Virus genome (UHGV): UHGV-0016039
DNA from: a virus
Direction: 5' to 3' (one strand)
DNA length: 44,102 nucleotides
A program made the position numbers and the translations under genes. Below, piece after piece: positions 1 through 30,542 of the stretch (its first letter is position 1; each line of letters opens with the position of its first letter). The notes below the pieces were generated by a model. That model did no database searches and was not told the DNA's origin. It was given only the letters and a program-made list of their open reading frames with translations.

Positions 1-20
1 TTTTTTTTTGAAATTAGTTG

Positions 21-50
21 TTGACACCCATCCTGCAACCAATCTATCAT
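21..50 (+). promoter_or_regulatory. sigma70-like promoter (TTGACA-18bp-TATCAT); spacer contains TGCAACCAAT motif
   Basis: TTGACA at 21-26, TATCAT at 45-50, 18 bp spacer; upstream T9 run at 1-9. Confidence 0.5.
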
Positions 51-246: not shown

Positions 247-765
247 ATGTTTGAGCAAATCGTAAACCTGATCACTCGCGGCGTAGTAGCACTGGAAACC
301 ATCGCTAAACATTATGAAACCGTCGGCGCTGCCGTTGGTAAGCAGGAAGACAAGAAGCCGTCTAAGTCCAAAAAAGAAGTTGTCGAAGATGACGACGATG
401 ACGCCGAAGACGAAAAACCGGCTAAATCTAAAAAAGCGCCTGCGAAGGGCAAGGCTAAGAAGGAAGTCGTAGAAGATGACGACGATGAAGAAGCCGAAGA
501 CGAAAAACCGGCTAAGTCTAAAAAAGCCCCGGCTAAAGGCAAAGGCAAGAAAGATGCCGATCCGCTGGCGGAGATGCGCGACGAGATCAAACAGTATGCC
601 GCGATTATTGCCGGTGGTGACGACGACGATGCGAACGACGAATTCGACGACCTGCTGGAATCGTTCGAGATCAAATCAATCGCCAAGCTGGAAGATGACG
701 ACGTCGAAGACTTCCACAAAGAGCTAAAAGAAATCGTCGAAACCTATTTCGAACTGGAAGATTAA
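247..765 (+). CDS. acidic, lysine-rich repeat protein (D/E tracts alternating with PAKSKKAPAKGK repeats); candidate early protein
   Basis: ORF track 67..765; ATG at 247 preceded by GGAGA at 236-240 (6 nt spacing); ATG at 67 has no SD; terminator immediately downstream. Confidence 0.55.
   Translation: MFEQIVNLITRGVVALETIAKHYETVGAAVGKQEDKKPSKSKKEVVEDDDDDAEDEKPAKSKKAPAKGKAKKEVVEDDDDEEAEDEKPAKSKKAPAKGKGKKDADPLAEMRDEIKQYAAIIAGGDDDDANDEFDDLLESFEIKSIAKLEDDDVEDFHKELKEIVETYFELED
343..556 (+). repeat. in-frame tandem repeat (~87-90 bp unit, 2 full copies plus a partial) encoding EDDDD-AEDEKPAKSKKAPAKGK
   Basis: near-identical DNA units starting at ~386 and ~473. Confidence 0.7.
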
Positions 766-771
766 TATTAT

Positions 772-800
772 CCGGCCCGCTAATCTGCGGGCCTATTTTT
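772..800 (+). terminator. rho-independent terminator
   Basis: GC stem ccggcccgc/gcgggcc followed by tattttt. Confidence 0.65.
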
Positions 801-813
801 AGAGGACGAGACA

Positions 814-1065
814 ATGGCACGCTTCACGCTAATCGAGGCGGTGGACTCCCGCGACCAGCGCCCATATTATTGGCTATTCGAACGCATCGGCAACTTTCAG
901 TCGCGAGTTGCCGTAATAGATAAACGCCGCAACACACCCGCGCAAATCAAGCGCACCACCTTTACTAATCCCGACTTTTATCTTTGGGCTGATTCCAATC
1001 TGGAATATGTTCGCTTTGCAGTTGCATCCGAAGCAAGAACAATCGACCGCTGGGAGACGAAATAA
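814..1065 (+). CDS. hypothetical protein (83 aa)
   Basis: ORF track; ATG 814 preceded by AGAGGA; TAATG overlap with next gene. Confidence 0.55.
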   Translation: MARFTLIEAVDSRDQRPYYWLFERIGNFQSRVAVIDKRRNTPAQIKRTTFTNPDFYLWADSNLEYVRFAVASEARTIDRWETK

Positions 1066-1247
1066 TGAAATTCTTCGTGCTGGCAACATGCCATAAGACA
1101 AACGACCATTTCTCTTTTCTTGTTATTAACAAGGACGCCTCTATGTGCTGGGTCGATGCGCAGCATGAAGTGCACCGCCGCGTCGAACAGGCGGGAATGG
1201 CTAATATCTGTAAATATGTAATTGTCCAGTTTACAAGGGTGGAATAA
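1065..1247 (+). CDS. hypothetical protein (60 aa)
   Basis: ORF track; TAATG overlaps at both ends (1063-1067, 1245-1249) suggest translational coupling. Confidence 0.45.
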   Translation: MKFFVLATCHKTNDHFSFLVINKDASMCWVDAQHEVHRRVEQAGMANICKYVIVQFTRVE

Positions 1248-2677
1248 TGGCTATTAAACCAAAGCGCAAAACACAATCAGGAAGCAATACAGAACACTCA
1301 TTACTCGGGCCATCGGGATCTAAAAAATGGATGGGGTGTCCCGCCGCCCTGGTGGTCGAAAAAGATATCCCGAACGAATCCGGGCAAGCTGCGATTAACG
1401 GTACGTGTATGCACACTGTATCGGAGGTCGTGCTAAACCGTATTATTGCCGGTGAGAAGCTGATAACCGCGAAGACGTACAAAGGGTGCTACGTCGAGAA
1501 CGAGGGTAAGGGACCAGTAAAGGCCCACCCGAAAGCACCAAAAGGCGGCGTACTGGTCAACGACGATATGGTGAAACAGTGCGATGCGTACATCGACCAC
1601 TGGCGACCACTCCTCGAGGTGGCGGAGTTTGTTCAGCTTGAGATGCGCGCCGATCTGACCCGCGTCCTTCACTCAGGCTACGAGATCGACGGCAACAGGA
1701 TTAAAACGTTCGGTACTGCCGATATGGTCATGGTCATGAAAAAGACCGATGGGACGTACATGCTGATTGTTGGCGACCTGAAGACCGGGCGGCATAAGGT
1801 CGAGGCGAAAGAGAACAAACAGCTTATGTTGTACGCGATCGGACTGCTGCGCAAGCTGCAAACTATGTACGACATTACGACCGTTCGCCTGGTTATCTTC
1901 CAGCCGTATTGCGGCGGGGCGTCGGAGTGGGATATTTCGGTAGAAGCGCTGGAGATATTCGCGAAGTTTGCATCCAAGCGCGCTATTGCCGCACTGGAGG
2001 CGTATTCCCGAGGCAAGAAGGGACTTACCCGTGCCGACTTCCGTCCCAGCGTTGATGCGTGCCAGTGGTGCCGATTTGCGGATCAGTGTAGTGCCCGCGC
2101 TAAGGCCGCAATCGACACGATGACACCTCCAACGGCAACCGACGAAGACCTGGGCGACGACGTGAGCGTGGCGACCGAGGAAGAATGCGCCAATCACGAC
2201 CGCAATATGGTCCGCGAAGCCCGAAAGGCGGCCCGACGTGCGAAGCGTGGCAAGAAAGAAGCTGCCCCCGGCGCTATGAGCGCTGCGGAACTGCGCAAGG
2301 CTTATGAAGGCCTGGACGCAATGCGCCAGCACATCAAAGCTATCGAGTCCGCGGTATTCAAAGCGGTAATGGCGGGCGATGGCGAATCGCTGGGCCTTAA
2401 GATGGTTGCCGGTAAGGAAGGGATCCGTAAGTGGGCGGACGAGAGCGAAGTTATTGAAATCTTCACGAAGGCCCGGATCAAGCGCGATGTGATGTACAAA
2501 GAAACATTGCTCAGCCCTACGGATGCCGAGAAGGTATTGAAGGACGAGAAGCCGAAAGTGTGGGCGAAGCTGTGTGATAAAATCACGCGCGCACCGGCTA
2601 AACCTGTATTAGCACCCATTGACGACCCGCGTCCTGCGTGGTCCGAAGCTACCGACGAGGACTTAAGTAATGAATAA
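1247..2677 (+). CDS. PD-(D/E)XK nuclease, DUF2800/Cas4-like, with C-terminal Cys cluster
   Basis: N-terminal LLGPSGSKKWMGCPAAL, D..K core (IVGDLKTG), CQWCRF..C cluster; position upstream of SSB-like and PolA genes. Confidence 0.75.
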   Translation: MAIKPKRKTQSGSNTEHSLLGPSGSKKWMGCPAALVVEKDIPNESGQAAINGTCMHTVSEVVLNRIIAGEKLITAKTYKGCYVENEGKGPVKAHPKAPKGGVLVNDDMVKQCDAYIDHWRPLLEVAEFVQLEMRADLTRVLHSGYEIDGNRIKTFGTADMVMVMKKTDGTYMLIVGDLKTGRHKVEAKENKQLMLYAIGLLRKLQTMYDITTVRLVIFQPYCGGASEWDISVEALEIFAKFASKRAIAALEAYSRGKKGLTRADFRPSVDACQWCRFADQCSARAKAAIDTMTPPTATDEDLGDDVSVATEEECANHDRNMVREARKAARRAKRGKKEAAPGAMSAAELRKAYEGLDAMRQHIKAIESAVFKAVMAGDGESLGLKMVAGKEGIRKWADESEVIEIFTKARIKRDVMYKETLLSPTDAEKVLKDEKPKVWAKLCDKITRAPAKPVLAPIDDPRPAWSEATDEDLSNE

Positions 2678-2912
2678 AGTATTCGCAATCTTATTGATGT
2701 TTTTGCTCGGCGCGCTGGGCTTTATCCTGCAGTGCGTGCAAGGCGTGTTAATGGTGGCATGGATGATTCGTCATCCAACCAAATGGCTGGATGACGGTTA
2801 TAGCGAAGTTGCCGTCGATTGGGTGGGGAAGAACATCAACCGCCCGCCGTTAAGCTGGATCGAGAACGCTACCAACTACGTGACCAGAAATCTTTTTAAT
2901 GAAAATGCTTGA
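2670..2912 (+). CDS. small membrane protein (80 aa)
   Basis: ORF track; hydrophobic N-terminus AILLMFLLGALGFIL; overlaps stop of upstream gene. Confidence 0.45.
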   Translation: MNKVFAILLMFLLGALGFILQCVQGVLMVAWMIRHPTKWLDDGYSEVAVDWVGKNINRPPLSWIENATNYVTRNLFNENA

Positions 2913-3002
2913 CCGCTTAGGCGCAACCAAGTAGATTAGCAACCAAGCCGAACGGGGTGGCTTCCAATAACCCCGATACATGTGAAAATGAGGAATTGGA
3001 AA

Positions 3003-3791
3003 ATGGCTAAAGTCAACCTGAAAAATGTGCGCGTATGTTTCCTGAAAATTTGGGAACGTGATACCCCTAAACAGGATGGACAAAAACCGGCATACCGCGC
3101 CGTGATTCTTCTTGATAAAGAAGACCCGCAGGTGGACAAAGTGGAGGCGGCAGCGCGCGCAGTGCTCACCGACAAGCTGAAATCCGAGAAGAATGCCGAT
3201 AAGTGGATGGACCGCCACTACGCCCAGGATTCTAAGGAATGTGCAGTTCGCGACGGCGACGAGCGCGATGAAGTAACCGAAGAGTTCGAAGGCATGTTGT
3301 ACATCAACGCCAAATCGTTCAAACAGCCTAACATCCAAACGTCACTGGGCGAGAAGCAGACCGAGCAAGGTCTGACCGTAGACGGCGACGAGATCGAAGG
3401 CCAGGAGATCTACTCCGGTTGTTATTGCAATGTGTCCCTGGATATTTGGGCGTGGAACAATACCAACGGCAAGGGGCTCGGGGCCGGCTTGCTGGGTCTG
3501 CGATTCCGTGAAGACGGCGAAGCCTTCGGGGGTGGCGGGTCTTCATGTTCTGACGAAGACCTGGACAACGATGACGAAGACGAAAGCCCGCGTAAGTCCA
3601 AAAAGTCAAAACGTCGTGATGACGATGACGAAGACGACAAGCCGCGTAAGTCCAAAAAATCCAAGCGCAGCGATGACGATGACGACGACGACGAAGACGA
3701 AAAGCCTCGCAAACGTCGTAAACCACGCGATGACGAAGATGAGGACGACGAAGACGAAGACGAAGCACCACGCAAACGTCGCCGCCGTTAA
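3003..3791 (+). CDS. DUF2815-type phage ssDNA-binding-like protein with C-terminal D/E-rich and PRKSKK repeat tail
   Basis: ATG 3003 preceded by GAGGAA; N-terminal MAKVNLKNVRV..F motif; gene order DUF2800-DUF2815-PolA. Confidence 0.7.
   Translation: MAKVNLKNVRVCFLKIWERDTPKQDGQKPAYRAVILLDKEDPQVDKVEAAARAVLTDKLKSEKNADKWMDRHYAQDSKECAVRDGDERDEVTEEFEGMLYINAKSFKQPNIQTSLGEKQTEQGLTVDGDEIEGQEIYSGCYCNVSLDIWAWNNTNGKGLGAGLLGLRFREDGEAFGGGGSSCSDEDLDNDDEDESPRKSKKSKRRDDDDEDDKPRKSKKSKRSDDDDDDDEDEKPRKRRKPRDDEDEDDEDEDEAPRKRRRR
3556..3788 (+). repeat. in-frame charged tandem repeats (DDDDEDD-KPRKSKKSKR units) at C-terminus of SSB-like protein
   Basis: repeated gacga(t/c)ga.. and ccgcgtaagtccaaaaa units visible in DNA. 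Confidence 0.65.
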
Positions 3792-3809
3792 GGGCAAAGC
3801 CCACTATTC

Positions 3810-3834
3810 AAGCCCGCTTAATGCGGGCTTTTTA
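3810..3834 (+). terminator. rho-independent terminator
   Basis: stem aagcccgc/gcgggctt followed by ttt. Confidence 0.65.
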
Positions 3835-3849
3835 ATAGGACAATGAAAA

Positions 3850-4020
3850 ATGCGTATTAAAGCCAGCGAAGTAAAAGTCGGAATGCAAGTATGGTCCAAA
3901 TTGCTGGGCGAGTATTTCACCGTTGCCGAGATTCGCAACAACGGCGAGGAGATCACCCTTTCCGACGGTATCTCCTCCATGATCGGCAGCGCTGACGCCG
4001 TAGTGAGGATAAAGCAATGA
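3850..4020 (+). CDS. small hypothetical protein (56 aa), stop overlaps PolA start (ATGA)
   Basis: ATG 3850 to TGA 4018-4020 read by hand; below the ORF-track length cutoff. Confidence 0.35.
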   Translation: MRIKASEVKVGMQVWSKLLGEYFTVAEIRNNGEEITLSDGISSMIGSADAVVRIKQ

Positions 4021-6308
4021 AAGACTTCGAACGCCTATTTCTCGACACAGAGACATTCAGCGATGTGGACCTGAAGAAAGTCGGCGCTTACGCCTACGCA
4101 GAACACCCGTCAACCGAGATTATGATTTGCACCTACGCCATCGACGAGGGCCGCGTGCAGACATGGGACGCCACTGAATCCCCCACGATGCCGCGTGAAC
4201 TACGCAAGGCGCTCCGCCATGTAACCCGCAAAAAAGCAAAAATAGTGATGGCGAACGGCCTCCTGTTTGACCGCCTGGTTATCCGTGAAAAGTGGGGCAT
4301 TGACCTGCCGGTAAGCCAGATCGAAGATACCATGATTATGGCCTTCCGACATGCGCTGCCGGGTGGCCTTGATATGCAATGCCAGGTGCTGGGCGTGGAC
4401 GCAGAGCACGCGAAGGATAAGGCGGGCAAGGCGCTGATTAAACGATTCTGTAAGCCTACCCCTAAGACCTACAAAATCCGCCGCTACACGCGCGAGACTC
4501 ACCCGGAAGAATGGGCTAAATTCCTGCGCTATGCCGCGCTGGATACTATCGCAATGCGTGAAGTCTACTGGCGCATACCGGACTGGGGCAACTCCCCGAA
4601 GGAAGACGAAATCCTGCTTATCGACCAGTTGATTAACGACCGCGGTTTCTATGTGGACGTTGACCTAGCTAACGCCGCGATCAAGGCGGTGCAGGTGCAT
4701 AAAGAAGAATTGAAGGAAGAAGCCTGGGAGCGTTTTGGCGGTAAGCTAACCGGCAACGACTTCCTGCCAATCCTGCGTGATATCGCCCCTGCGTTCACTA
4801 TTCACAACGCGCAGAAATCAACGCTGAATGACTTGCTGGAAGACCCAGACTTCCCCGACGAGGGCAAGGTGCTCATTGAGATGCGCCTCGGTGCGTCATC
4901 AACGGCATCGACTAAGTACAATCCGCTCGTCAATGGCCTGTCCGCCGATGGTCGCCGCCGTGGTTGTCTTCAGTATGGTGGGGCAAAGCGCACGCTACGC
5001 TGGGCCGGTAAAGGCTTTCAACCTCAAAACCTGGCGCGTGGCGAGTACAGCGACGACCACGAAGGGAAGATTAAACGCCGCGAGGGTGAAAGCGACGTCT
5101 CGTTTTGGGTCCGGTCGCACATGCTCACCAACGGCATCAACTCCCTGTTACGCGGGACCGCACACTGGGCGTATGACATATCGAAGCTAACGGCATCGAC
5201 CGTTCGCGGGTGCATTATTCCTGCGAAGGGTAAGAAGTTTGTCGTAGCGGACTACTCCAACGTGGAAGGGCGTGGCCTTGCCTGGATCGCTGGCGAGAAA
5301 ACAGCGCTCATGGTGTTTAAGGCCGGTCGCGATATCTATTGTGAGACTGCCGGTAAGATGTTCGGCCTGGACCCGGACTACATTAAAGCCAACCGCAAGG
5401 ACTTACGCCAGATCGGTAAGGCGTGCGAATTGGGACTGGGCTATGGTGGCGGCGTCGCGGCGTTCTTGCAGTTCGCTAAAAACCTGGGCCTCGACCTTTA
5501 CACTATGGCGGACGTGATGAAAGGCACGTTCCCGGATCACATTTGGGCGGCGGCGAAACGTGGTTATGAGTACGCTCGCATTAACGAAGCGAAGCGCCCG
5601 CCGAAGCCGGGCAAGAAGGACGAGCGCCCAACATACATACTGCCGAAAAACGTATGGCTTACTTGTGACGCAATCAAACGTATGTGGCGTGAGGCTCACC
5701 CGAAGACGGTAGCCTTTTGGGCCGAGCTTGAGGACGCTGTGTTGTGTGCAATCCGCAATCCGGGCAAAGCATACTGGGCTGGCGCGAACGTTCGCCCGGA
5801 CGGTAGAAAAGCGCTCAAGATTGTCCGTACGAAGGCGAAGCACGACCCAACCTTTGACGAGGAGCGCGACGACCCGAACGCCGCGGGGTGGTGGTTGAAA
5901 ATTGAGTTGCCGTCGGGGCGCATCATGAGCTACCCCGGCATCGCGCTGTCTGTCACGACCGAGATTGACGAAGACACCGGCAAGAAGCGCACCAGCACAC
6001 GCATTAAATATCAGGGCGAGAATCAGACGACGCGCCAGTGGGGATTCCAGTATACCTACGGCGGCAAACTGACGGAGAACATCGTACAGGCGTTGTGCCG
6101 CGATATTCTCGCATGGTCCATGCCTGGCGTTGAAGCTGCGGGGTATAAAATCGTCCTGTCGGTGCATGATGAATTGATCACAGAAGTGCCGGACACCGAC
6201 GACTACACTACCGAGGAACTTTGCGCGCTGATGTGCGACCTGCCTATTTGGGCGAAGGGCTTCCCACTTGCCGCCGAAGGCGACATCATGTACAGGTACA
6301 GGAAGTAA
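4017..6308 (+). CDS. DNA polymerase, family A, with 3'-5' exonuclease domain
   Basis: N-terminal LFLDTETFS exo motif; RQIGKACELGLGYGGG (motif B K...YG); VHDELITEV (motif C). Confidence 0.92.
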   Translation: MKDFERLFLDTETFSDVDLKKVGAYAYAEHPSTEIMICTYAIDEGRVQTWDATESPTMPRELRKALRHVTRKKAKIVMANGLLFDRLVIREKWGIDLPVSQIEDTMIMAFRHALPGGLDMQCQVLGVDAEHAKDKAGKALIKRFCKPTPKTYKIRRYTRETHPEEWAKFLRYAALDTIAMREVYWRIPDWGNSPKEDEILLIDQLINDRGFYVDVDLANAAIKAVQVHKEELKEEAWERFGGKLTGNDFLPILRDIAPAFTIHNAQKSTLNDLLEDPDFPDEGKVLIEMRLGASSTASTKYNPLVNGLSADGRRRGCLQYGGAKRTLRWAGKGFQPQNLARGEYSDDHEGKIKRREGESDVSFWVRSHMLTNGINSLLRGTAHWAYDISKLTASTVRGCIIPAKGKKFVVADYSNVEGRGLAWIAGEKTALMVFKAGRDIYCETAGKMFGLDPDYIKANRKDLRQIGKACELGLGYGGGVAAFLQFAKNLGLDLYTMADVMKGTFPDHIWAAAKRGYEYARINEAKRPPKPGKKDERPTYILPKNVWLTCDAIKRMWREAHPKTVAFWAELEDAVLCAIRNPGKAYWAGANVRPDGRKALKIVRTKAKHDPTFDEERDDPNAAGWWLKIELPSGRIMSYPGIALSVTTEIDEDTGKKRTSTRIKYQGENQTTRQWGFQYTYGGKLTENIVQALCRDILAWSMPGVEAAGYKIVLSVHDELITEVPDTDDYTTEELCALMCDLPIWAKGFPLAAEGDIMYRYRK

Positions 6309-6586
6309 TGACACCAGAAGGCAAGATTCAAAGTCACCTGATGAAACGGGTGAAAGAGGTCGGCGGATTCTGCCGCAAACTGGCATGGGAGGGACGCGCA
6401 GGTGCGCCCGACCTGATTATCATAATCAACGGCATCATAGTATTCGTCGAAGTGAAGCGCCCCGGAGGAAAACCGAAGCCACACCAGGTACGTGAGCATG
6501 AGCGAATGGTCCGCCGCGGTGCTGACGTTCGCGTCATCGACAACATATCCGACTGCGATTTATTGGTTGCTGAATTGGTCGCATAG
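6308..6586 (+). CDS. VRR-NUC domain nuclease
   Basis: ATG 6308 overlaps PolA stop (TAATG); GAPDLIII..VFVEVKRPGGKPKPHQ motif. Confidence 0.7.
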   Translation: MTPEGKIQSHLMKRVKEVGGFCRKLAWEGRAGAPDLIIIINGIIVFVEVKRPGGKPKPHQVREHERMVRRGADVRVIDNISDCDLLVAELVA

Positions 6587-6626
6587 CGGTATAGTGTGCC
6601 GGTTAGCCATATCGAGGATTTTAGAG

Positions 6627-6800
6627 ATGATTGAAGAAAAACGTTGTAGTAATTGCGGCTGTGTAAAGCCGCTATCCCAGTTCCACAAATACACCGGTAA
6701 GACTGCGCGCAGTCCAGACGGGTATCGGGCAGAGTGCAAATCGTGCCGCAATAAGAAAGAGCGCGAACGGCAGCGCCGCTACCGTGCAGAACAAAAATAA
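6627..6800 (+). CDS. small zinc-ribbon protein (CxxC...CxxC), basic C-terminus
   Basis: ATG 6627 preceded by GAGG; CSNCGC ... CKSCRNKK. Confidence 0.5.
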   Translation: MIEEKRCSNCGCVKPLSQFHKYTGKTARSPDGYRAECKSCRNKKERERQRRYRAEQK

Positions 6801-6807
6801 TTAATAC

Positions 6808-6830
6808 GGCGGGCTTGTCCCGCCCTTTTT
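6808..6830 (+). terminator. rho-independent terminator
   Basis: stem ggcggg/cccgcc followed by ttttt. Confidence 0.65.
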
Positions 6831-6843
6831 GGGAGACATGACG

Positions 6844-7062
6844 ATGAAAGAACATTACCGACTCACCAAGCTGGGCGAATGTAAACCGGGCGATCGCGTA
6901 TGGTTTATCGCGGGCATGAATGATCCGCTGCCGTTGACGGTGTGCTGGCAAAAATTTAAGAGCTTCCGGGCTACCGGTGTGCACATCGGACACGCCACCA
7001 ACTACGACGCTACAAAAAGGAACTGGAACAGTGAGACTGAAGTCTGGAAAAAGGCGGAATAA
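6844..7062 (+). CDS. hypothetical protein (72 aa)
   Basis: ORF track starts at TTG 6829; ATG 6844 is 8 nt after GGGAG. Confidence 0.5.
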   Translation: MKEHYRLTKLGECKPGDRVWFIAGMNDPLPLTVCWQKFKSFRATGVHIGHATNYDATKRNWNSETEVWKKAE

Positions 7063-7066
7063 CGAC

Positions 7067-8491
7067 ATGGCAAGATTCCGACGCCGCGAATATCAGAAGT
7101 TGATAACCGCGTTCATCCTCAAGCATAAGCGATGTAATATCTGGGCGACAATGGGATCCGGTAAAACCGGCGCGACAATGTGGGCGCTGAATAAAATGTT
7201 CCAGACTGGCGTCCTGTCCCATCATGAGGACCGCGTACTGGTGCTGGCCCCGCTGCGTGTTGCGTCGGGTACATGGCCCCCGGAACAGGAGAAATGGCGG
7301 TTCTCATCCCTGCTGGTCGTAGACGGCACCGGACCGGAGAAGGACCGTATTGCCGCGCTTGAGAGCGACGCTAACGTGGTTTGTGTTAACTACGATGTGG
7401 TTGAGTGGCTGGTCGACTATTACGGCGATGCGTGGCCCTTTACGGTCGTTGTTGCCGATGAATCGACTAAGCTGAAAGGCTATCGAAGCAAGCAGGGGAG
7501 CAAGCGCGCCCGCGCACTGGCAGCGATTGCACATAAACACGTCAAGCGCTGGATTAACCTTACCGGCACACCCGCACCCAACGGGCTGAAAGACTTATGG
7601 GGTCAGACGTGGTTTGTCGACGGTGGCGAACGCCTCGGCAGTAGCTATAAGGCATTTACCGACCGCTGGTTTATTAGCAAGCCTGTTAAGCCTGGCAGCT
7701 TCACTATGCAGCACGCCCCGCTCAAGAACTCCGAGAAGGAGATCCAACAACGCCTGTCTGACGTATCCCTTACCGTTGACGCGGCTGAATACTTCGGATG
7801 TGACAAGCCAATCTATACTCCGGTTGTTGTGGACCTGCCGAAGAAAGCCCGCAAGATTTATGACCAGTTCGAAGCGGAGCTATTTGCCGAACTGGAAAGC
7901 GGAACGGTGGAGGCGGCGAACGCGGCTTCGAAGACTATTAAGTGCCTTCAGCTTGCTTCCGGGGCCGTGTATAAAGTCGACGAAGACGGCGAGCGCACCG
8001 ACGAATGGGTGAAAATCCACGACGCTAAACTGGACGCGCTGGAAAGTATCGTGGAGGAGTTGAACGGCGCACCGTTGCTCGTCGCGTACCAGTACAAGCA
8101 TGACCTGGCGCGTCTCAAGAAGAAATTCCCGCACGGCGTAGCGATGGGTAAGGGTAAGCAAGGCAATAAGGACATGGAAGCGTGGAACAGGGGCGAGATC
8201 CCCATCATGTTCGCACACCCGGCATCGGCGGGTCACGGCCTTAACTTGCAGGATGGCGGACACCACCTTGCCATCTTCTCCGACACCTGGAACTATGAGC
8301 ATTTTTCGCAGATTGTGGAGCGTATCGGGCCGGTTCGCCAGATGCAAGCCGGACACCCTCGTCCGGTATTCGTCTACATTATCCAGGCGCGCGGAACACT
8401 GGACGAACTGGTCGCCGAGCGTCGCGACAGTAAGCGAGATATACAGGACGACTTGATGGAATACATGAAAGCTAAAAAGGCGCGCAAATGA
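7067..8491 (+). CDS. SNF2-family (DEAD/DEAH-box) helicase
   Basis: ATG 7067; Walker A ATMGSGKTG, VVADESTKLKG, LTGTPAPNGLKDLW. Confidence 0.88.
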   Translation: MARFRRREYQKLITAFILKHKRCNIWATMGSGKTGATMWALNKMFQTGVLSHHEDRVLVLAPLRVASGTWPPEQEKWRFSSLLVVDGTGPEKDRIAALESDANVVCVNYDVVEWLVDYYGDAWPFTVVVADESTKLKGYRSKQGSKRARALAAIAHKHVKRWINLTGTPAPNGLKDLWGQTWFVDGGERLGSSYKAFTDRWFISKPVKPGSFTMQHAPLKNSEKEIQQRLSDVSLTVDAAEYFGCDKPIYTPVVVDLPKKARKIYDQFEAELFAELESGTVEAANAASKTIKCLQLASGAVYKVDEDGERTDEWVKIHDAKLDALESIVEELNGAPLLVAYQYKHDLARLKKKFPHGVAMGKGKQGNKDMEAWNRGEIPIMFAHPASAGHGLNLQDGGHHLAIFSDTWNYEHFSQIVERIGPVRQMQAGHPRPVFVYIIQARGTLDELVAERRDSKRDIQDDLMEYMKAKKARK

Positions 8492-9183
8492 TTATCTGGT
8501 CATTATTTGACGGCAGCGGATTGATGATCGAGCGTGCTGCCGAGATGGGGCATAAGTGTTATTGCTTCAACTACTCCGAAGCCGATCACGGGTCTTACCT
8601 GGACTACCGGATCTATGGTCGCGGTATCCGATATCGTAATGAGTTTATCGATCTGGACTTTGTAGACCGCGCGATGAATGGCGATTTCGGTACGCCAGAT
8701 ATCATCTACGCATTCCCGCCGTGTACTGATCTGGCGGTGAGCGGTGCGCCAGCTTTCCCGCGCAAACGCGCCCGCGACCCGGCCTTCCAGCTTAAGGCGG
8801 TGCGCACCGCGAAGATCGCAGCTTACCTGGGTGACTTCTTCGAAGTGCCATATATGATTGAGAATCCGCGCAGTGTGCTTTCCACCCAGTGGCGTAAGCC
8901 GGACCACTCGTTTGATCCGTGGGAGTATGGGGGATATCTGCCGGAGGATGACGTACACCCGCTCTTCCCTGAATACATCAACGCCCGCGATTCATATCCG
9001 AAGCTGACCTGCTTATGGGCCGGCAACGGCTTCCGTATGCCGGAGAAGAAACCTGTTTTCGTTGAAAAAGGGTACTCGAAACAGTATAGTCGCCTCGGTG
9101 GTAAATCCGCTCGTACAAAATTAATCCGGTCGCTCACTCCGCGCGGCTTCGCGATAGCGGTTAACGAGGAAAATTTAAAATGA
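8488..9183 (+). CDS. minimal C5-cytosine methyltransferase-like protein (motif I/IV/VI-like, no obvious target-recognition domain)
   Basis: SLFDGSG (FxGxG-like), FPPCTDLAVSG (PC motif), MIENPRS (ENV-like); ATGA overlap with helicase stop. Confidence 0.45.
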   Translation: MIIWSLFDGSGLMIERAAEMGHKCYCFNYSEADHGSYLDYRIYGRGIRYRNEFIDLDFVDRAMNGDFGTPDIIYAFPPCTDLAVSGAPAFPRKRARDPAFQLKAVRTAKIAAYLGDFFEVPYMIENPRSVLSTQWRKPDHSFDPWEYGGYLPEDDVHPLFPEYINARDSYPKLTCLWAGNGFRMPEKKPVFVEKGYSKQYSRLGGKSARTKLIRSLTPRGFAIAVNEENLK

Positions 9184-9503
9184 ATACTACATTCGACGCC
9201 ATCGACTTTTCAGTGGCAATGACCAATCAGCTTTTTTCCTACGACAGTAAGACCGGCGTCATCCGCCTGAAGTCCACCGGACGCAAAATTGGCAACCTTA
9301 ACACTGCCGATGGCGGAACACGTATCGAATGCAACGGCAAGACGCTGTCCGGCGCACGCGTGGCGTGGATTATTGAGACGGGCAATACAATCCCTCCAGG
9401 CTTCGCCGTTGTGTGCCGCCAGCGCACTCCAGGGCACTACGGCAACCGCATGAGCAACCTGTATCTGGTAGACGTTGCGCGCGACCCAAATTTTTATTCG
9501 TAA
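9180..9503 (+). CDS. HNH_3-like domain protein, catalytic motif apparently degenerate
   Basis: ARVAWIIETGNTIPPGFAV..GHYGNRMSNLYLV resembles HNH_3 pattern but lacks a clear DH..N core; ATGA overlap at 9180. Confidence 0.4.
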   Translation: MNTTFDAIDFSVAMTNQLFSYDSKTGVIRLKSTGRKIGNLNTADGGTRIECNGKTLSGARVAWIIETGNTIPPGFAVVCRQRTPGHYGNRMSNLYLVDVARDPNFYS

Positions 9504-9507
9504 ATTG

Positions 9508-9536
9508 GTTGCACAACCATATTGGTTGCATTATAT
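9508..9536 (+). promoter_or_regulatory. sigma70-like promoter TTGCAC-17bp-TATATT with ATTGGTTGCA elements
   Basis: TTGCAC 9508-9513, TATATT 9531-9536; TTGGTTGCA at 9505 and 9521. Confidence 0.5.
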
Positions 9537-9539
9537 TGA

Positions 9540-9565
9540 GGGTGTCCGGTTTGGACGCCCTTTTT
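9540..9565 (+). terminator. hairpin plus T5 run (terminator for upstream operon or attenuator in 5' leader of gene at 9585)
   Basis: gggtgtccgg ttt ggacgccc followed by ttttt, starting about at the predicted TSS. Confidence 0.45.
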
Positions 9566-9584
9566 AATACCTGGAGACAGTGAT

Positions 9585-9827
9585 ATGAAATCATTATTTT
9601 TCGACTACGACGGCGACCTTCGATTTTGGGTGCTCCTCACCCTCATGATTGCCGGCTGTATTGGCATACCTTCGACGGCTATTTACTACACGGAACGCTA
9701 CGAATGCAAGACCGTGTATGCCGAGCAAACCGGACGCAATACCCAATGGCGCTATGGTGTCTGCTGGGTGGAGATGAACGGTAAATTTATCCCACGCAAT
9801 GAAATCCGCACCACGGAGATTAAATAA
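9585..9827 (+). CDS. small membrane protein (80 aa, one TM helix)
   Basis: ATG 9585 preceded by GGAG; FWVLLTLMIAGCIGIPSTAIYY. Confidence 0.5.
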   Translation: MKSLFFDYDGDLRFWVLLTLMIAGCIGIPSTAIYYTERYECKTVYAEQTGRNTQWRYGVCWVEMNGKFIPRNEIRTTEIK

Positions 9828-10286
9828 GTGAAAATTTTACAAGAAGAGAAAAATTACGGGGCCGCGCAATGCCTCGAAGCCCGCGAACAGGCCGAACGCG
9901 CGAACGCGCTGGCGGACACCTACCTGGCGAGCTATGAAGGCGAGGAGAAGGCGCGCAAGGAATTAGAGGAGCGCTTCGATCTGCTGTATGAGTTGATGGG
10001 TATTATGCAGCGCACCGGATACACCACCACCGTCGCGCTAAACCGCATCACTGCCGAAGGTCTGCGCGAGCATTGCAAACGTGCCGAGGCGTACGTGCGC
10101 CCCAAAGGTCACCAGTCTAAGATCGACCGGAAAGACCTGGTGCTTATGGCGTGGCGCGCAAACGGTAGCTACTACTCCGATTGCCGACCGCTTAGCGTCG
10201 AGGGGGGAAAGCGCCTGCAACGCGTTCTAAACAGTGGTAAGAAAATTGCCCTGTACGCGATAGATCAAGACCATGCAGAAGAGTGA
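9828..10286 (+). CDS. hypothetical protein (152 aa), helical/coiled-coil N-terminus
   Basis: ORF track; GTG start directly after upstream stop. Confidence 0.4.
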   Translation: MKILQEEKNYGAAQCLEAREQAERANALADTYLASYEGEEKARKELEERFDLLYELMGIMQRTGYTTTVALNRITAEGLREHCKRAEAYVRPKGHQSKIDRKDLVLMAWRANGSYYSDCRPLSVEGGKRLQRVLNSGKKIALYAIDQDHAEE

Positions 10287-10758
10287 GCAGAAAGATAGCT
10301 GGCGCACACCGCCAGCTTTATTTAAACCGCTGCGCCGTAAGTTCCGATTCCGTTACGATATGGCGGCAAGCGACGCCAATCATCTGCTACCGCGTTACTT
10401 CACGGCAGAGCACAGCGCGCTTGATGTGGACTGGGCAGAGTTGAAAGGGTGGAAATGGTGCAATCCGCCGTATTCCGATCCGCTGCCGTGGGTGGAATGC
10501 GCAGCGCACGGACGGCGGACTGTCATGCTACTGAATCAGGACACGTCGACTAAGTGGGCGAAGTTGGCCCGGAAGACTGCAAACCTGATAATTCTTCTGG
10601 ACTGGCGGATTAGATTCATTCACGCCGTCACCGGCGAAGTCGGTCCGAGCAATAACAAGTGCCAGCAATTGATAATCTTTGACGAAGCGCCACCCCTCGG
10701 CAGCGCACAAATTGAAATAATGAGCGAAGGAGAACTCCTTGAATATCTTAATCGTTGA
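10273..10758 (+). CDS. dam: DNA N6-adenine methyltransferase (phage Dam-type)
   Basis: WRTPPALF N-terminus and NPPY catalytic motif (WCNPPYSDP). Confidence 0.8.
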   Translation: MQKSEQKDSWRTPPALFKPLRRKFRFRYDMAASDANHLLPRYFTAEHSALDVDWAELKGWKWCNPPYSDPLPWVECAAHGRRTVMLLNQDTSTKWAKLARKTANLIILLDWRIRFIHAVTGEVGPSNNKCQQLIIFDEAPPLGSAQIEIMSEGELLEYLNR

Positions 10759-10963
10759 CCGCGACCCTGCGGTCGTAGACCGAATGCAAAAAGACTACGG
10801 CATTGACCCGCGGCGCAATCATGTGGTGCGCGCATCTCATCCCGGACGCATCATGGGCCTTGACCTCAACGGTTGGCTTGTCATGACTCAGCGTTGCCAT
10901 TTCGTATGCAACTCCTTTACTGCGCGAAGCGCCCGACAGACACTTATTGAGAGCTTAAAATGA
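10739..10963 (+). CDS. hypothetical protein (74 aa)
   Basis: TTG start at 10739, 6 nt after AAGGAG; ATGA overlap with next gene. Confidence 0.4.
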   Translation: MNILIVDRDPAVVDRMQKDYGIDPRRNHVVRASHPGRIMGLDLNGWLVMTQRCHFVCNSFTARSARQTLIESLK

Positions 10964-11430
10964 AATTACTGATTTGCGATTTGGATGGCGTTATTAATGG
11001 TTCAAGCGATGCGCGTGCCGACCTGGTTCCGGGCATAAAAACAAAATCCACCTTCTGGGCGAAGTGGCACAAAGCGCACGTCCGCGAAGACCTGAACATG
11101 GATATGCTGCCGCTGTTGCGCATGTACAAAGAGCAAGGCTTCGAGATCGCGTATCTGACAAACCGGCAGCTAGAATGTTGGGACACCACCGCCGAGCAAT
11201 TGGAGGTCTTCCCGGTAGGCAGGTTATTCATGCGCCACATGCTGGACGACACCCCGCCGCCAGAGTTTAAAGCGTGCGCTGTGTTCAAAATGGTCTGCTA
11301 TGCGGACGTATCGGAACTGGTCATCATTGAAGACTGTCCGAAGAACATCGCGGCAATTCGTCGGGCGTGCAGCGATTTAATCCCGAAAATTTACGCAATA
11401 AACGTTGCAAAATTTACTTGCAACCAATAG
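10960..11430 (+). CDS. HAD-superfamily phosphatase-like protein (possible nucleotidase)
   Basis: motif I LICDLDGVI, motif II AYLTNR, acidic motif IIEDC. Confidence 0.6.
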   Translation: MKLLICDLDGVINGSSDARADLVPGIKTKSTFWAKWHKAHVREDLNMDMLPLLRMYKEQGFEIAYLTNRQLECWDTTAEQLEVFPVGRLFMRHMLDDTPPPEFKACAVFKMVCYADVSELVIIEDCPKNIAAIRRACSDLIPKIYAINVAKFTCNQ

Positions 11431-11441
11431 GTTGGTTGCAG
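11418..11441 (+). promoter_or_regulatory. perfect 10-bp inverted repeat TTGCAACCAA-tagg-TTGGTTGCAg (candidate operator/promoter element)
   Basis: palindrome read directly from sequence, 50 bp upstream of ATG 11493. Confidence 0.45.
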
Positions 11442-11492
11442 TATCTTAATCACGTCGGGGGCAATACCGCCTCCACTAAAAAGGAAAACATC

Positions 11493-12014
11493 ATGAAAGC
11501 ATACGAATACTGCAAAAACGCCGCTACCACTATGGAACAGCGCGGGAAAGAAAACGGCTATGACAACGCGAAAGAAGAACGCAGCGCTAAACAGATCGCC
11601 GCCGTGTTTAACGCGCTTACCGGGCGCGACCTTACCGAGCAAGAAGCCTGGACCTTCCTGATCTGTCTGAAGCTGGTGCGCCAGAACCGTAAGCACCAGG
11701 AAGATAACATCGTGGATCTGGTGGCGTATGCCGCCCTGCTGGGCGAGTCTTACATGACCGTGCATGACGAGATTCAGATCGACACAACGGCAGCGCAATA
11801 CGGCAGCCTAAAAGGTTGGCCCATCGCCACCGCAGGGACGTGGCATCCTTCGTCATCGGTGGGTAAGACTGTCAATGCCGAAATTAGCGGTATTGCGGGT
11901 CAAGAATTCCAGCCTATGGTCGTGCTCACCGGCGAAGACGGATCGAAAATCTGCATGACGCAGGAAGATTTCCGTATCATGGAAAAAACACTGGTGACTA
12001 GTGCACTTAAATAA
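11493..12014 (+). CDS. hypothetical protein (173 aa)
   Basis: ATG 11493 preceded by AAGGAA; ORF track frame 11367..12014. Confidence 0.55.
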   Translation: MKAYEYCKNAATTMEQRGKENGYDNAKEERSAKQIAAVFNALTGRDLTEQEAWTFLICLKLVRQNRKHQEDNIVDLVAYAALLGESYMTVHDEIQIDTTAAQYGSLKGWPIATAGTWHPSSSVGKTVNAEISGIAGQEFQPMVVLTGEDGSKICMTQEDFRIMEKTLVTSALK

Positions 12015-12054
12015 TTTAATCGCGGGCTTCGGCCCGCATCAATGAGGACTCATA

Positions 12055-12630
12055 ATGTACGGCGAATATGAAATAACCGGTAAACAATTCCACCTGGCGG
12101 CAATGATAGCAAGCATCGAGTTTGACCAGTGGCGGTATAAGTCCGACGCGTGCAAGCAAAGCAGACTCGTCGGTGTGCTGGGCGAAATGTTTGCAGGCAT
12201 GTACCTCGAAGGGCAGGCGGGCGGGCGTAGCTGTATCCCGCAAGGTTTGCTAATGCGTACCGGCCTGTTTAGCGCTAACACTATCGACCGCGGCGATATT
12301 ATCATGGTCGGTAAGCGCAAGGTTAAGTCCGGTCCCGACTTCCGGGAACACATGATTGATGCCGTATGGACCTACGAGGTAAAAGCCGCCAGCGGCATCC
12401 GTCGCGGACTTGTCGAGGCACGTTGCGCTCGCGAATATCTATCACGTCGCGTTGCCGGTGTTATCCTGGTGGGGGTGTCGTTAGGGCCGCAAAGCGCGCA
12501 CGGCGTGATTGAGGATATTGCGGAACCGTACGTGATTGTGAACGACTGGCCCTTAGTGGAAGTGGAAGGAAAGGAATATTACGAAAGCCAGCTGGTGCGG
12601 CGCAAAATGGACTGGGAAAACTCAAACTAA
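12055..12630 (+). CDS. hypothetical protein (191 aa)
   Basis: ATG 12055 preceded by GAGGA. Confidence 0.55.
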   Translation: MYGEYEITGKQFHLAAMIASIEFDQWRYKSDACKQSRLVGVLGEMFAGMYLEGQAGGRSCIPQGLLMRTGLFSANTIDRGDIIMVGKRKVKSGPDFREHMIDAVWTYEVKAASGIRRGLVEARCAREYLSRRVAGVILVGVSLGPQSAHGVIEDIAEPYVIVNDWPLVEVEGKEYYESQLVRRKMDWENSN

Positions 12631-14416: not shown

Positions 14417-14437
14417 AGCTAAATCCTCTTAAATTGG

Positions 14438-14466
14438 TTGCATTCTTGATCGAGCGGTGTAATACT
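14438..14466 (+). promoter_or_regulatory. promoter TTGCAT-17bp-AATACT with ATTGGTTGCA element, driving + strand lipoprotein operon
   Basis: TTGGTTGCA at 14434; -35/-10 spacing 17. Confidence 0.45.
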
Positions 14467-14496: not shown

Positions 14497-14727
14497 ATGA
14501 AAACTTTAATCAAATCTGCAATCATTGCCGTGGTGGTGAGTATGGCCGTTGGTTGCTCTTCTGGCCCGCGTCCGGACGGTTGGTGCGCGACACAAGCAAG
14601 CGGCGTATGTGTAGCTAAATGGAAAGGCGGTGTCGTTGTTCCGGCGGGTGAGGTTGATATCCGTTATGACGGTATTAAAGGGCATAGCGGATCGGTTCGT
14701 GATTATGGGTCCAGGGAGTGGAACTAA
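14497..14727 (+). CDS. small lipoprotein (signal peptide plus lipobox AVGC, 4 Cys); candidate Llp/Cor-like superinfection-exclusion protein
   Basis: [22 protein letters not shown]; AGGAG 8 nt upstream of ATG 14497. Confidence 0.7.
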
Positions 14728-15662
14728 TGGCGCAAGGTATCTTCATCGATCTTAACGACGGGCGTAACCCGATGACAATCACCGCAGGTATGCGCGCCTT
14801 GAATTTCGCGGGGAACTTCAATGTTTCAAGTGGTGGATTTAGTAAGACATTTCCAATTCAAGGTAATGAAGGGGCTTCCAGGTTTATTCTCCCTAACAAC
14901 GGCGCATACTCCTTCGAACTGGACCGTGGTGTTGAGGTTTATTATATAACGGGCTTTTCATCAACAGCATCCAGCGGAACAATTTCTATTGGTTATGAGA
15001 ATGGTTATCCAGACCGCATAACGCAGTTCTCCGGAACTGTAGTAGAGGTTCTTAGGGCATCGACAGGTCAGGGGCTTTACGTTGCCGACAGTACGGATTT
15101 CACATCAATAACCACAACTGACAGGTTGCTTGTCTGCAAATTCGCTCAAACTATAACATTCTATGATAGTTACACCCTTCCGATATACGGCATACCGTTC
15201 GGCAGGTGGGATAATTCCGGTGTTTCTGTTGAGTACGACGGTGTTAATCGGTTGATATGCACAAACATAAACACAAATGATACAGGGCACACGCCAGGAA
15301 GTGTTACTATGGATTTGGTTATTTTCCAGATGGTTGCGCCAGTGCCGGGGCCGGGGTTAAACATATTTAACCACAACGGCGCCTGTACCCTTTCAACAGT
15401 TACCAGACCCCTTGTTGTGTCCGGATTTATAAATCTGTCAGGTAGCAATCAGTATATTGGTGATTCTTACTTCCCAATACTAAGGTGTGGGTTCAACACT
15501 CGGGCCATACCGGCATACAAGGAACTAAGAAACAAAGGCGTAGTTATGAGCGGCGGATATGTAAGGTCGGGAACTGGCTCCCGAATTGTAAGGTACGAAA
15601 TCGGCAACAGACCCGATGTTACTATCCCAACTCCGCTGCCGTACCTCCCCAACATGTATTAA
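14727..15662 (+). CDS. hypothetical protein (311 aa), Ser/Thr/Gly/Asn-rich, co-transcribed with lipoprotein
   Basis: ATG 14727 overlaps lipoprotein stop (TAATG), GGGAG 8 nt upstream. Confidence 0.55.
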   Translation: MAQGIFIDLNDGRNPMTITAGMRALNFAGNFNVSSGGFSKTFPIQGNEGASRFILPNNGAYSFELDRGVEVYYITGFSSTASSGTISIGYENGYPDRITQFSGTVVEVLRASTGQGLYVADSTDFTSITTTDRLLVCKFAQTITFYDSYTLPIYGIPFGRWDNSGVSVEYDGVNRLICTNINTNDTGHTPGSVTMDLVIFQMVAPVPGPGLNIFNHNGACTLSTVTRPLVVSGFINLSGSNQYIGDSYFPILRCGFNTRAIPAYKELRNKGVVMSGGYVRSGTGSRIVRYEIGNRPDVTIPTPLPYLPNMY

Positions 15663-24548: not shown

Positions 24549-24617
24549 TATGCAGTCCCCTTTTTTATGCAGTTGCCGATGGATATTGTATCAGCGATTT
24601 CAAAACAAACCTTATTC

Positions 24618-24932
24618 AGTCTCAGACGAGGGGGGCCATTGACCCCCGTCTAGTCTGAAAGACTGGGGTGCTGTCCCGCTGTCCCGATCGGCTAAAAACC
24701 GCGGCAGCACTGGCGGGGACGGGGTGCTGTCCCGCTTTGTCCCGCCCCTTGTTTGTCCCGCTTTTTGTCCCGCTTACTTTATGCAATAAAACTGCATATA
24801 TATGCGTATTTATGGGGTGAGACAAAACGGGGCGTCCCGCCTGTCCCGTTTTGAGTTTATGCAATGAAAGTGATTAGATATGCGGTTTTACAGAGGCGGG
24901 ACAAAACGGGACGTCCCGCCTGTCCCGCTTCA
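24618..24932. repeat. composite repeat copy A: GC hairpin, GTCCCGC/GCGGGAC iterons, TTTATGCA-N-TGCAT palindromes, internal ~75 bp tandem duplication
   Basis: near-identical to 41078-41260; at least 8 GTCCCGC copies. Confidence 0.7.
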
Positions 24933-28452: not shown

Positions 28453-28484
28453 TATAAAAAAAGGGCGGGCATAAGCCCGCCCCT
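28453..28484 (-). terminator. rho-independent terminator downstream of major capsid gene
   Basis: aggggcgggc-ttat-gcccgccct followed by ttttttt on - strand. Confidence 0.65.
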
Positions 28485-30513: not shown

Positions 30514-30542
30514 GGTTGCACACCAACAACGAGGACACCCAA

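Follow-up and report, generated by a model that had tools for sequence, protein, structure and literature searches.

Phage regulators that act on operators within host-type promoters are well known. In mycobacteriophage L5, gp71 is reportedly one small helix-turn-helix (HTH) protein that silences many transcription units; L5 is said to be temperate, with gp71 maintaining lysogeny. The sites of gp71, named stoperators, are reportedly asymmetric, about 10-13 bp long and present in many copies, at least one of which overlaps the -35 of a promoter. Here, a comparable site set is described in UHGV virus genome UHGV-0016039, a stretch of 44,102 nucleotides that was analyzed as a whole and is referred to as the window. 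The asymmetric word TTGGTTGCA is repeated across the window, largely within predicted promoters, and a 109-amino-acid (aa) HTH protein encoded in the same genome is its candidate reader. The type of mechanism is familiar and would interest a specialist rather than surprise one; the design and the orphan regulator are new.

The site set resembles the L5 stoperators in being asymmetric and many-copy, with a single small HTH protein as the candidate reader. Unlike temperate L5, the phage group to which the window belongs appears strictly virulent. The stoperators stand largely in one orientation and inside transcription units, whereas the copies in the window use both orientations (with local transcription in 12 cases and against it in 6) and lie in promoter cores in 15 cases of 18. 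No homology to gp71 was detectable by profile searches, in which gp71 was not compared directly. The regulator slot itself is the same as that of lambda Cro and of Cro/XRE-type early regulators in related virulent siphophages, such as gp54 of the Salmonella phage Shemara: it is located at the head of the leftward early operon, by the helicase-primase gene and divergent from the rightward operon. The inferred turn-down of early promoters, together with autoregulation, would also be Cro-like. Cro operators, however, are ~17-bp palindromes clustered at one region, and the window has mostly a single asymmetric word distributed over at least 10 promoters; the dyad typical of Cro/CI-type operators is seen in only three copies, which form a TTGGT-N5-ACCAA palindrome. 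In addition, the HTH protein matches Pfam HTH_23 and Sigma70_r4_2, not HTH_3 or Cro as a Cro/XRE regulator would. The phi29 p4, Mu Mor/C and T4 MotA proteins act from one fixed position at promoters without a usable -35, whereas in the window the positions vary and the hexamers are usable. The T4 MotA box is fixed, centred about -30 and replaces the -35, which differs from copies spread over -40 to +4 in both orientations, and no Pfam or PHROG match to an AsiA- or MotA-like partner was found among the 30 open reading frames (ORFs) scanned. The lambda Q site is found at one late promoter with a sigma-dependent pause, a terminator and a Q-family protein; the window also has spacer copies, but at many promoters without downstream terminators.

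The last 60 and first 70 bases of the window are contiguous in relatives (100% identity over 130 bp). The 44,102-bp window therefore represents an entire, circularly permuted genome of a Dhillonvirus, which makes motif counts taken in it genome-wide. About 160 Dhillonvirus records match the window at 86-92% identity over most of its length; these are E. coli siphophages of the HK578 / SSL-2009a / YD-2008.s type, BASEL collection members included. Few E. coli siphophages are isolated more often than Dhillonviruses, which have been used in bacterial-defence work and phage engineering. Nothing on their transcription was found in the searchable literature or the GenBank annotations examined, and the searchable literature yielded nothing relevant on the motif, on Dhillonvirus promoters or transcriptomes, on the function of the HTH protein, or on HK578 and SO-1.

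Enrichment, placement and conservation of the word

The word TTGGTTGCA is present in 11 copies on either strand, at 34 (-), 9505, 9522, 11419 (-), 11432, 14434, 30499, 30512, 40352, 40883 (-) and 40914 (-). The same 11 sites had been listed in the initial annotation, of which three coordinates (9521, 30513 and 40342, here 9522, 30512 and 40352) were off by 1-10 bases. Its estimate of about 0.3 chance occurrences in 44 kb agrees with the 0.32 calculated, and the genome-wide count it proposed as a check confirms the enrichment over the complete circularly permuted genome. None of 100 dinucleotide shuffles reaches 11 copies. The related 9-mer ATTGGTTGC has 14 copies versus 0.41 expected under an order-3 Markov model, and the 10-mer ATTGGTTGCA has 10 versus 0.05. 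A chance or compositional origin is ruled out by the shuffles and the order-3 Markov simulations.

Alignment of the copies revealed that conservation extends one base upstream, where 10 of the 11 exact copies have A, and not at all downstream; at position -1 of the motif, A is commoner than G. The core invariant across lineages is TTGGTTGC, giving a consensus of (A)TTGGTTGC(A). The ATTGG part is the best-conserved portion, and the ninth base is free, with A preferred in Dhillonviruses and G, A or C found in divergent relatives. Variants of the type TTGGTTGCC are located at 41006 (+), 41286 (-) and 41321 (-), and pairs with one mismatch at 2922/2938 (-) and 6563/6575 (+). The one-mismatch copies at 2922, 2938, 6574 and 11431 are each paired with another copy and conserved in relatives. 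In total, the set comprises the 14 ATTGGTTGC copies and at least four variants over 11 loci, and 18 copies were analyzed. Copies flanking the origin-like region belong to a distinct subclass, ATTGGTTGCC. The inverted repeat TTGCAACCAA-TAGG-TTGGTTGCA noted by the earlier reading is indeed present at 11418-11440; no conserved symmetric partner stands beside the copies in general, and the spacing of pairs is variable (12-35 bp in the window). Intergenic DNA accounts for 7.2% of the genome and contains 11 of the 14 ATTGGTTGC copies, which rules out a coding artefact in this genome. The remaining three overlap coding sequence, namely the final codons of two genes and the interior of one small gene.

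Other identities of the word were considered and rejected. A sigma54 promoter (TGGCAC-N5-TTGCA) has its GG and GC 10 bp apart, whereas these are 4 bp apart in TTGGTTGCA, and the -24/-12 spacing is not recovered in any tandem pair. CytR (GTTGCATT) and NtrC-like consensus sequences do not fit in spacing or with the conserved ATTGG part. An RNA-level element is not indicated, as the window has no Rfam family or tRNA and most copies are upstream of the expected start site. Neither the inverted pair 11419/11432 nor CAACCA after 9505 is read as a hairpin or terminator, because the partner arm is unconserved among genomes.

Placement was assessed against a core promoter defined as TTGnnn-16..18-nAnnnT with at least 8/12 consensus matches, numbered so that the -10 hexamer is at -12 to -7. 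Fifteen of the 18 copies overlap such a core, compared with a mean of 0.78 and a maximum of 5 for random positions in 2000 trials, in strong support of the link between motif and promoters that had been suggested at the outset. All clusters except 41005 and 41321 coincide with a sigma70-like core facing the next gene. These predicted promoters, designated P with a number in Table 1, have hexamers 16-18 bp apart. Forward copies occupy -40 to -31 in P6566, P9508, P14438 and P40918, where the TTGCA of the word constitutes the -35 hexamer. Spacer copies in either orientation (-28 to -13) are found in P1, P2909, P6566, P9508, P11418 and P30485, and copies at -9 to +1 or -6 to +4 in P30485, P40918 and P2909. 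In P11418 and in the intragenic promoter at 40361, a reversed copy extends from -35 to -26 and a preceding T makes TTGCAA the -35. P1, P2909 and P30485 have a -35 of their own, and their copies are confined to the spacer or the start site, a geometry that should block the polymerase. Copies at -40 to -31, -28 to -13, -9 to +1 and -6 to +4 overlap the -35, the spacer, the -10 or +1, as expected for an operator acting by occlusion. The layout TTGCAn-17-TATATT/AATACT that the initial annotation assigned to four sites holds at 9509-9537, 14438-14466 and 40918-40890 (-) but not at 30485, since the -35 TTGCAA of this promoter belongs to no motif copy.

The word is under purifying selection. Over 20 Dhillonvirus loci, motif columns are 98.7% identical, as compared with 87.4% for other intergenic columns and 91% for promoter hexamers (Mann-Whitney p=9e-11). 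In the 9505/9522 pair, the bases between the copies vary (CAACCAT, TAATCAT, TAATTAG and others) while the copies and their 17-bp spacing are fixed; the apparent hairpin at this locus is therefore removed. The pair inside the VRR-NUC gene keeps its synonymous positions and varies at the degenerate ninth base. The second copy of the Nmad5 promoter forms the left half of a palindrome, TTGGTTGCACACCAA (30512-30526), and the intragenic copy at 40351-40360 is kept at the orthologous position in 6/6 full genomes.

Conservation extends to five divergent metagenomic relatives (L021, L023, L026, L027 and L028), whose proteins are 40-85% identical to those of the window and whose intergenic sequences are no longer alignable. 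In each of them, ATTGGTTGC is the top or tied-top 9-mer. Their rightward early promoter reads TTGACGCAACCAA(C/T)GCAACCAATCTAnTAT, with two tandem reversed copies filling the spacer, and copies remain at the SSB (single-stranded-DNA-binding protein), Lar-like and ligase-side promoters. They also persist at the promoter that follows the origin region, where the second copy lies 13, 16 or 31 bp from the first, depending on the lineage, and the position relative to the -10 shifts. Such turnover of position with retention of the site would be tolerated by an occluding operator and not by a position-dependent activator site. All five also have TTGGTTGCC pairs equivalent to 41286/41321. Shemara and Otaku, both Guernseyvirinae, have an orthologous SSB promoter (TTGACA-17-TATAGT / TAAATT) with the same downstream 5' hairpin and no copy in the spacer. 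Because this promoter is intact without a copy, the motif is best described as an add-on to promoters that would work from standard hexamers. Shemara has ATTGGTTGC once in 27 kb, with no enrichment of the word.

The predicted late promoters lack the word in their cores. The extended -10 of terS is kept as TGATATACT or TGTTATACT in L021, L023, L026 and L047 and is conserved also in L001 and L003; in every lineage examined this promoter is without the motif. The scaffold and capsid promoters share a 10-mer, AATTTTGCGA (29660-29669 and 30472-30481, -), which contains TTGCGA as the -35, occurs only twice in the genome and may be a late-promoter signature. The motif copies at 30498-30520 stand at -55 to -77 of the scaffold promoter. 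Judged by these predicted elements, the early/middle promoters of the genome are -35-dependent and bear operators, and the late ones are operator-free. Intrinsic terminators lie directly before three genes with no promoter between, at 39068-39097 (holin start codon), 37846-37867 (exonuclease gene) and 28467-28482 (gene after the major capsid gene), all on the - strand. Since the operator-free extended -10 promoter of terS should be constitutive and terminators front these promoterless genes, read-through control or gene dosage must contribute to late-gene timing. The exonuclease gene has a motif-bearing promoter (TTGACGTGCAACCAA...AATACT) in L001, L003, L004, L006, L021 and L023, which is lost in this phage.

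The candidate regulator

Of the 30 small or unassigned ORFs scanned, only that of the 109-aa HTH protein encodes a recognised DNA-binding domain. Its residues 65-107 match Pfam HTH_23, HTH_28 and Sigma70_r4_2. In the AlphaFold2 (AF2) model (pLDDT 88), a short helix and a long one (residues 21-79) accompany the helix-turn-helix at the C-terminus (residues 84-108), and a structure search returned generic three-helix HTH matches only. Over 19 aligned family members, residues 47-106, which include the recognition helix STVRSWVRN, hardly vary, and the N-terminal 45 residues are hypervariable and almost unalignable. The near-invariant half mirrors the DNA word, which is itself invariant in those lineages. 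Co-variation between residue 95 (Q or V) and the ninth motif base showed no clear pattern.

The family is closed, with 25 clusters that all come from this phage group. No relatives were found in 185,579 bacterial genomes, and a profile search of 5.8 billion proteins plus PDB sequences detected none outside the phage group. P0026, the only weaker family match, was rejected as a distant relative of the regulator; it is an unrelated chromosomal gene next to trmD. The GenBank records examined label the protein 'transposase', 'resolvase' or 'Gam' and leave the motif unannotated. The protein is common to the window, L021 and L023 and is absent from Otaku and Shemara, in which the same genomic slot contains a Cro/XRE-type regulator.

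The promoter of the HTH gene, predicted to be strong, carries a site in every lineage, either as a full copy or as a palindrome. In the five divergent relatives, a full reversed copy, GCAACCAA, is located ~9 nt after the -10; at this position the window and other Dhillonviruses have TTGGTCATTAACCAA, two partial copies arranged as a palindrome. It is probable that TTGGTCATTAACCAA is the autoregulatory site of the HTH gene. The palindrome TTGGT-N5-ACCAA occurs three times in the genome versus 0.02 expected, each time just after a -10 (P30485, P40918 and the HTH promoter). This suggests a dimer able to use two TTGGT half-sites one helical turn apart. The enrichment of the word, its promoter-like placement, the purifying selection, the deep conservation and the co-occurrence with the near-invariant HTH protein were each observed directly. 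That the 109-aa protein is the binder of the word is considered moderately probable.

A proposed operator and competing readings

The motif is interpreted as a multi-copy operator in -35-dependent sigma70 promoters that is read by the 109-aa HTH protein and acts by occlusion, an interpretation given about an even chance. A regulator-binding site had been offered as an alternative in the initial annotation; it fits every copy and is the reading adopted here. We infer that the promoters are active, that the HTH protein is the binder and that the effect is repression. In this scheme, the HTH protein, as the first product of the leftward early operon, would accumulate and occupy copies at the -35, in the spacer or at -9 to +1, and RNA polymerase would then be unable to bind or open the occupied promoters. 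Early/middle units, namely the replication genes, the Cor-like lipoprotein, Nmad5 and the small-gene unit, would be dampened or shut off. The protein would limit its own synthesis through the site just after its own -10, and promoters without a core copy (the terS extended -10, scaffold and capsid promoters) would escape. The operator would contribute to the early-to-late shift, a Cro-like role exerted through a dispersed, L5-stoperator-like site set. Plain occlusion is favoured because P1, P2909, P30485 and the HTH promoter carry copies only where a bound protein would exclude the polymerase or block the start. In the remaining promoters a copy covers the -35 and usually a second covers the spacer or start, and one rule would therefore explain every site.

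Several points weigh against this interpretation. Otaku (L048, Serratia phage vB_SmaM-Otaku) has no HTH homologue by tblastn and profile search and still carries (G)TTGGTTGC 12 times versus 1.9 expected and GTTGGTTGC nine times versus 0.7 (26646-26767, 24856, 24931 and 29422). Four of the Otaku copies cluster, in two reading frames, at the 3' end of the helicase-primase gene, in a 120-bp stretch directly before the iterons (TTCCGCACA). A further two stand as an inverted pair in intergenic DNA close by, and the divergent early region contains one. Two Otaku copies were discounted, being explained by a repeated FVGC peptide. In Dhillonvirus-like lineages, a copy pair precedes the origin-like iterons, always as the ATTGGTTGCC variant, and the origin-region copies of the window fall into this separate subclass. 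At least the origin-flanking use of the word is thus older than, or independent of, the HTH family, and another protein can read the word in Otaku. Owing to this enrichment without the HTH protein, confidence in the latter as the binder was lowered to somewhat above even. The long predicted helix suggests a dimer, yet most sites are single and asymmetric and pair spacing is variable. Full repression of P40918 would also silence the downstream lysis/small-gene unit. The phyletic argument for the HTH protein, drawn from two outgroup genomes, is weak because the phage proteins of unknown function that accompany the motif are numerous.

The forward copy at -40 to -31 stands 17 bp from the -10 in four promoters of the window and in all divergent lineages, and the -35 there (TTGCAn, TTGCTG) is weaker than at promoters with reversed copies (TTGACA, TTGACC). 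This would be consistent with a dual function of the HTH protein, which would repress TTGACn promoters with a reversed spacer copy (P1, P2909 and its own) and, resembling phi29 p4, PhoB or Mu Mor/C, activate those with a forward copy (P6566, P9508, P14438 and P40918) through contact with RNA polymerase. Residues 47-66, outside the HTH, are invariant and hint at a conserved partner such as the host polymerase. However, TTGCAn-17-TATATT/TATAGT scores 8/12 and should work unaided, the fixed distance follows simply from the copy containing the -35 hexamer, and three of the four promoters have a second copy in the spacer or at -9 to +1, where it is expected to block the polymerase. A dual function is therefore rated as fairly unlikely; given the unexplained invariance of residues 47-66, it would be more interesting than plain occlusion. 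In a further version, rated clearly unlikely, residues 47-106 would read the word at every -35-dependent promoter and on both sides of the origin and also touch a conserved partner, either the host polymerase or the helicase-primase, whose gene comes next. The protein might then re-programme sigma70, as a sigma-region-4-like surrogate at TTGCA -35 sites, and gate transcription into the origin. Replication would thereby be linked to the early-to-late switch, and the origin copies in Otaku would point to an older origin-linked function.

The word could alternatively be read by the helicase-primase or by another phage or host protein, with a primary role at the replication origin and the promoter copies being secondary. 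The Otaku copies adjoining the iterons would fit such a reader, as would the five copies that flank the origin-like region of the window (40883-41330) and the sharing of the helicase-primase at 47% identity. The iterons, however, change by lineage (GCGGGACA in the window, L023 and L028; GGTGCCA in L021/L026; GGTGTGGCA in L027) while TTGGTTGC is invariant, so that co-variation of the word with the initiator is not seen. No E. coli regulator is known to have this consensus. No copy is present in the second iteron region (24600-24940), most copies are inside promoters kilobases from either iteron region, and Shemara has a homologous helicase-primase without enrichment. A different reader is accordingly judged unlikely. 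The notion that the motif is itself an origin iteron was rejected, since TTGGTTGC is invariant and dispersed, in contrast to lineage-specific repeats, and is missing from 24600-24940. Direct reading by RNA polymerase, as an extended -35 or upstream element without a dedicated binding protein, corresponds to the promoter class proposed in the initial annotation. It suits a minority of copies: the TTGCA of the word acts as a -35, 17 bp from a good -10, in 3-4 promoters, and 3 of the 11 exact copies (27%) have a -10 partner 16-18 bp from their own TTGCA, versus 4.5% of other TTGCA occurrences (p=0.02). It does not account for the remainder. Two thirds of the copies are away from the -35, copies also occur reversed, in the spacer and after the -10, ATTGG is the most conserved part although it makes no polymerase contact, and the orthologous promoter of relatives works from standard hexamers alone. 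This possibility is regarded as extremely improbable. A protein bound between -35 and -10 could also join the transcription complex and permit terminator read-through. The lambda Q-binding element is located between -35 and -10, as are several copies of the word, and the genome is rich in terminators, some of them before the promoterless genes mentioned above. Against such loading, most motif promoters drive short, terminator-free units (Cor-like lipoprotein, Nmad5), transcripts from P9508 are expected to start 6 nt into the hairpin that follows it, which would thus terminate the upstream unit, the position and orientation of copies vary, and the bare 109-aa HTH protein has no similarity to Q proteins. 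It is considered very unlikely.

If the occluding-operator reading is true, it would explain gene timing in a virulent phage without its own polymerase, and engineering would gain defined promoters along with a portable repressor/operator pair. The wiring diagram offered consists of about ten operator-bearing early/middle promoters, operator-free late promoters and one candidate master regulator.

Gene layout and associated elements

The gene map (Table 1) was built from ORFs and the annotations of L001, L002 and L004-L006.

Table 1. Positions of gene blocks, the candidate regulator, predicted promoters and motif copies in the window.
Feature	Position	Strand	Remarks
Rightward replication/early block	about 247-12630	+	
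Leftward block	to 15685	-	small HTH gene (43946-43617), helicase-primase (43606-41342), small genes, lysis, packaging, head, tail
Three small counter-flow units			tail fibre gene; Cor-like lipoprotein/DUF6453 unit (14497-15662); Nmad5 gene (30546-31307)
Candidate binder, 109-aa HTH protein	43617-43946	-	first gene of leftward early operon, directly upstream of helicase-primase gene
HTH gene promoter, TTGACA-N17-TAGTTT (44006-43978)	43961-44006	-	palindrome TTGGTCATTAACCAA of two partial copies at about +3 to +17
P1, rightward early promoter, TTGACA-N18-TATCAT	21-50	+	11/12 to consensus; terminator and T9 run just upstream
Motif copy ATTGGTTGCA in P1	34-43	-	reversed, in 18-bp spacer (-23 to -14)
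P2909, SSB-like gene promoter, TTGACC-N17-TAGATT	2909-2947 (with copies)	+	both copies reversed: CTTGGTTGCG 2922-2931 (spacer); CTTGGTTGCT 2938-2947 (-6 to +4)
P6566, Lar-like gene (6627-6800) promoter, TTGCTG-N17-TATAGT	6562-6595	+	
Motif copies in P6566	6562-6571; 6574-6583	+	ATTGGTTGCT (provides -35); ATTGGTCGCA (spacer)
P9508, locus of the initial annotation, TTGCAC-N17-TATATT	9504-9537	+	copy 1 9504-9513 (-40 to -31, provides -35); copy 2 9521-9530 (-23 to -14, spacer)
P11418, inverted pair, TTGCAA-N18-TATCTT	11418-11447	+	reversed copy 11419-11428 (overlaps -35); forward GTTGGTTGCA 11431-11440 (-23 to -14)
P14438, lipoprotein (Cor-like) gene promoter, TTGCAT-N17-AATACT	14433-14466	+	single copy 14433-14442 provides -35
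P30485, Nmad5 gene promoter, TTGCAA-N17-TATATT	30485-30526	+	copies 30498-30507 (-22 to -13) and 30511-30520 (-9 to +1)
Intragenic copy	40351-40360	+	overlaps -35 of - strand TTGCAA-N17-TACATT (40361-40333)
P40918, TTGCAT-N17-TATATT (40918-40890)	40877-40923	-	head of leftward small-gene/lysis unit; copy 40914-40923 provides -35; copy 40883-40892 at -9 to +1, within palindrome TTGGT-N5-ACCAA (40877-40891)
ATTGGTTGCC variant copy	41005-41014	+	downstream side of origin-like iteron region
Two ATTGGTTGCC variant copies, 41321-41330 and 41286-41295	41286-41330	-	between helicase-primase stop codon and origin-like iterons
terS promoter, perfect extended -10 type, TGTTATAAT	36382-36390	-	no motif copy, no -35; directly after terminator hairpin with T-run (36382-36421)
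Scaffold promoter, TTGCGA-16-TGaTAATAT	30477-30450	-	no copy in core
Capsid promoter	about 29660	-	no copy in core

Both copies of the Lar-like gene promoter coincide with the final eight codons of the VRR-NUC gene (LLVAELVA*; 6562-6586), a layout kept in L021 and L023; at this 3' end, coding sequence and regulatory word use the same bases. The C-terminal ELVA of the helicase-primase in L021 and L023 is likewise encoded through a motif copy. Directly after the -10 of P9508 is a hairpin (9538-9567, +) of 10 bp with a U5 tail (-17.2 kcal/mol, z = -4.0), which is kept with compensatory changes in L023 (-20.3 kcal/mol). Transcripts from P9508 would lack its 5' arm and upstream read-through would terminate, making the element a compact terminator/promoter overlap.

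Two paralogous origin-like regions, 24600-24940 (-) and 41040-41240 (-), match 'region A' and 'region B' in the record of Sodalis phage SO-1. Both contain many direct and inverted GCGGGACA repeats and a conserved hairpin (CCCAGTCTTTCAGACTAGACGGGGG...CCCCCCTCGTCTGAGACTG) preceded by ATGCA(G/A)TTTTA(T/C)TGCATAAA; the architecture is kept in relatives with a changed repeat, and the pairing resembles the ori/crr pair of phage P4. The lineage-specific iterons suggest that they are read by the helicase-primase.

The interval between P1 and the HTH promoter (44019-44102 into 1-9, +) contains a short transcription unit with a TTGAAA-N17-AATAAT promoter (with TG). It is followed after ~30 nt by a hairpin (44079-44102, -14.8 kcal/mol) and a T9 run, and the product RNA would be roughly 55 nt. 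The layout is kept in all divergent relatives with different hairpins; the terminator is annotated in vB_EcoS_WF5505, and the unit has no Rfam match.

The first rightward early gene (67-765, +) probably starts at M61 (position 247), as in L021, L023 and L027. An extra leader of roughly 150 nt precedes it in the window and L027, and a terminator follows at 774-793. Its product, a member of PHROG 3127 of unknown function, has a strongly acidic composition and lysine-rich repeats (KPAKSKKAPAKGK / EDDDD). The 253-aa product of the Nmad5 gene matches Pfam Nmad5 (nucleotide modification associated domain 5) with E=2.8e-55. The gene is a counter-oriented cassette within the head-gene block, behind a motif-bearing promoter, and in other Dhillonviruses the cassette varies, some having an added 109-aa ORF and others a RusA-like gene annotated as 'DNA pol III beta'.

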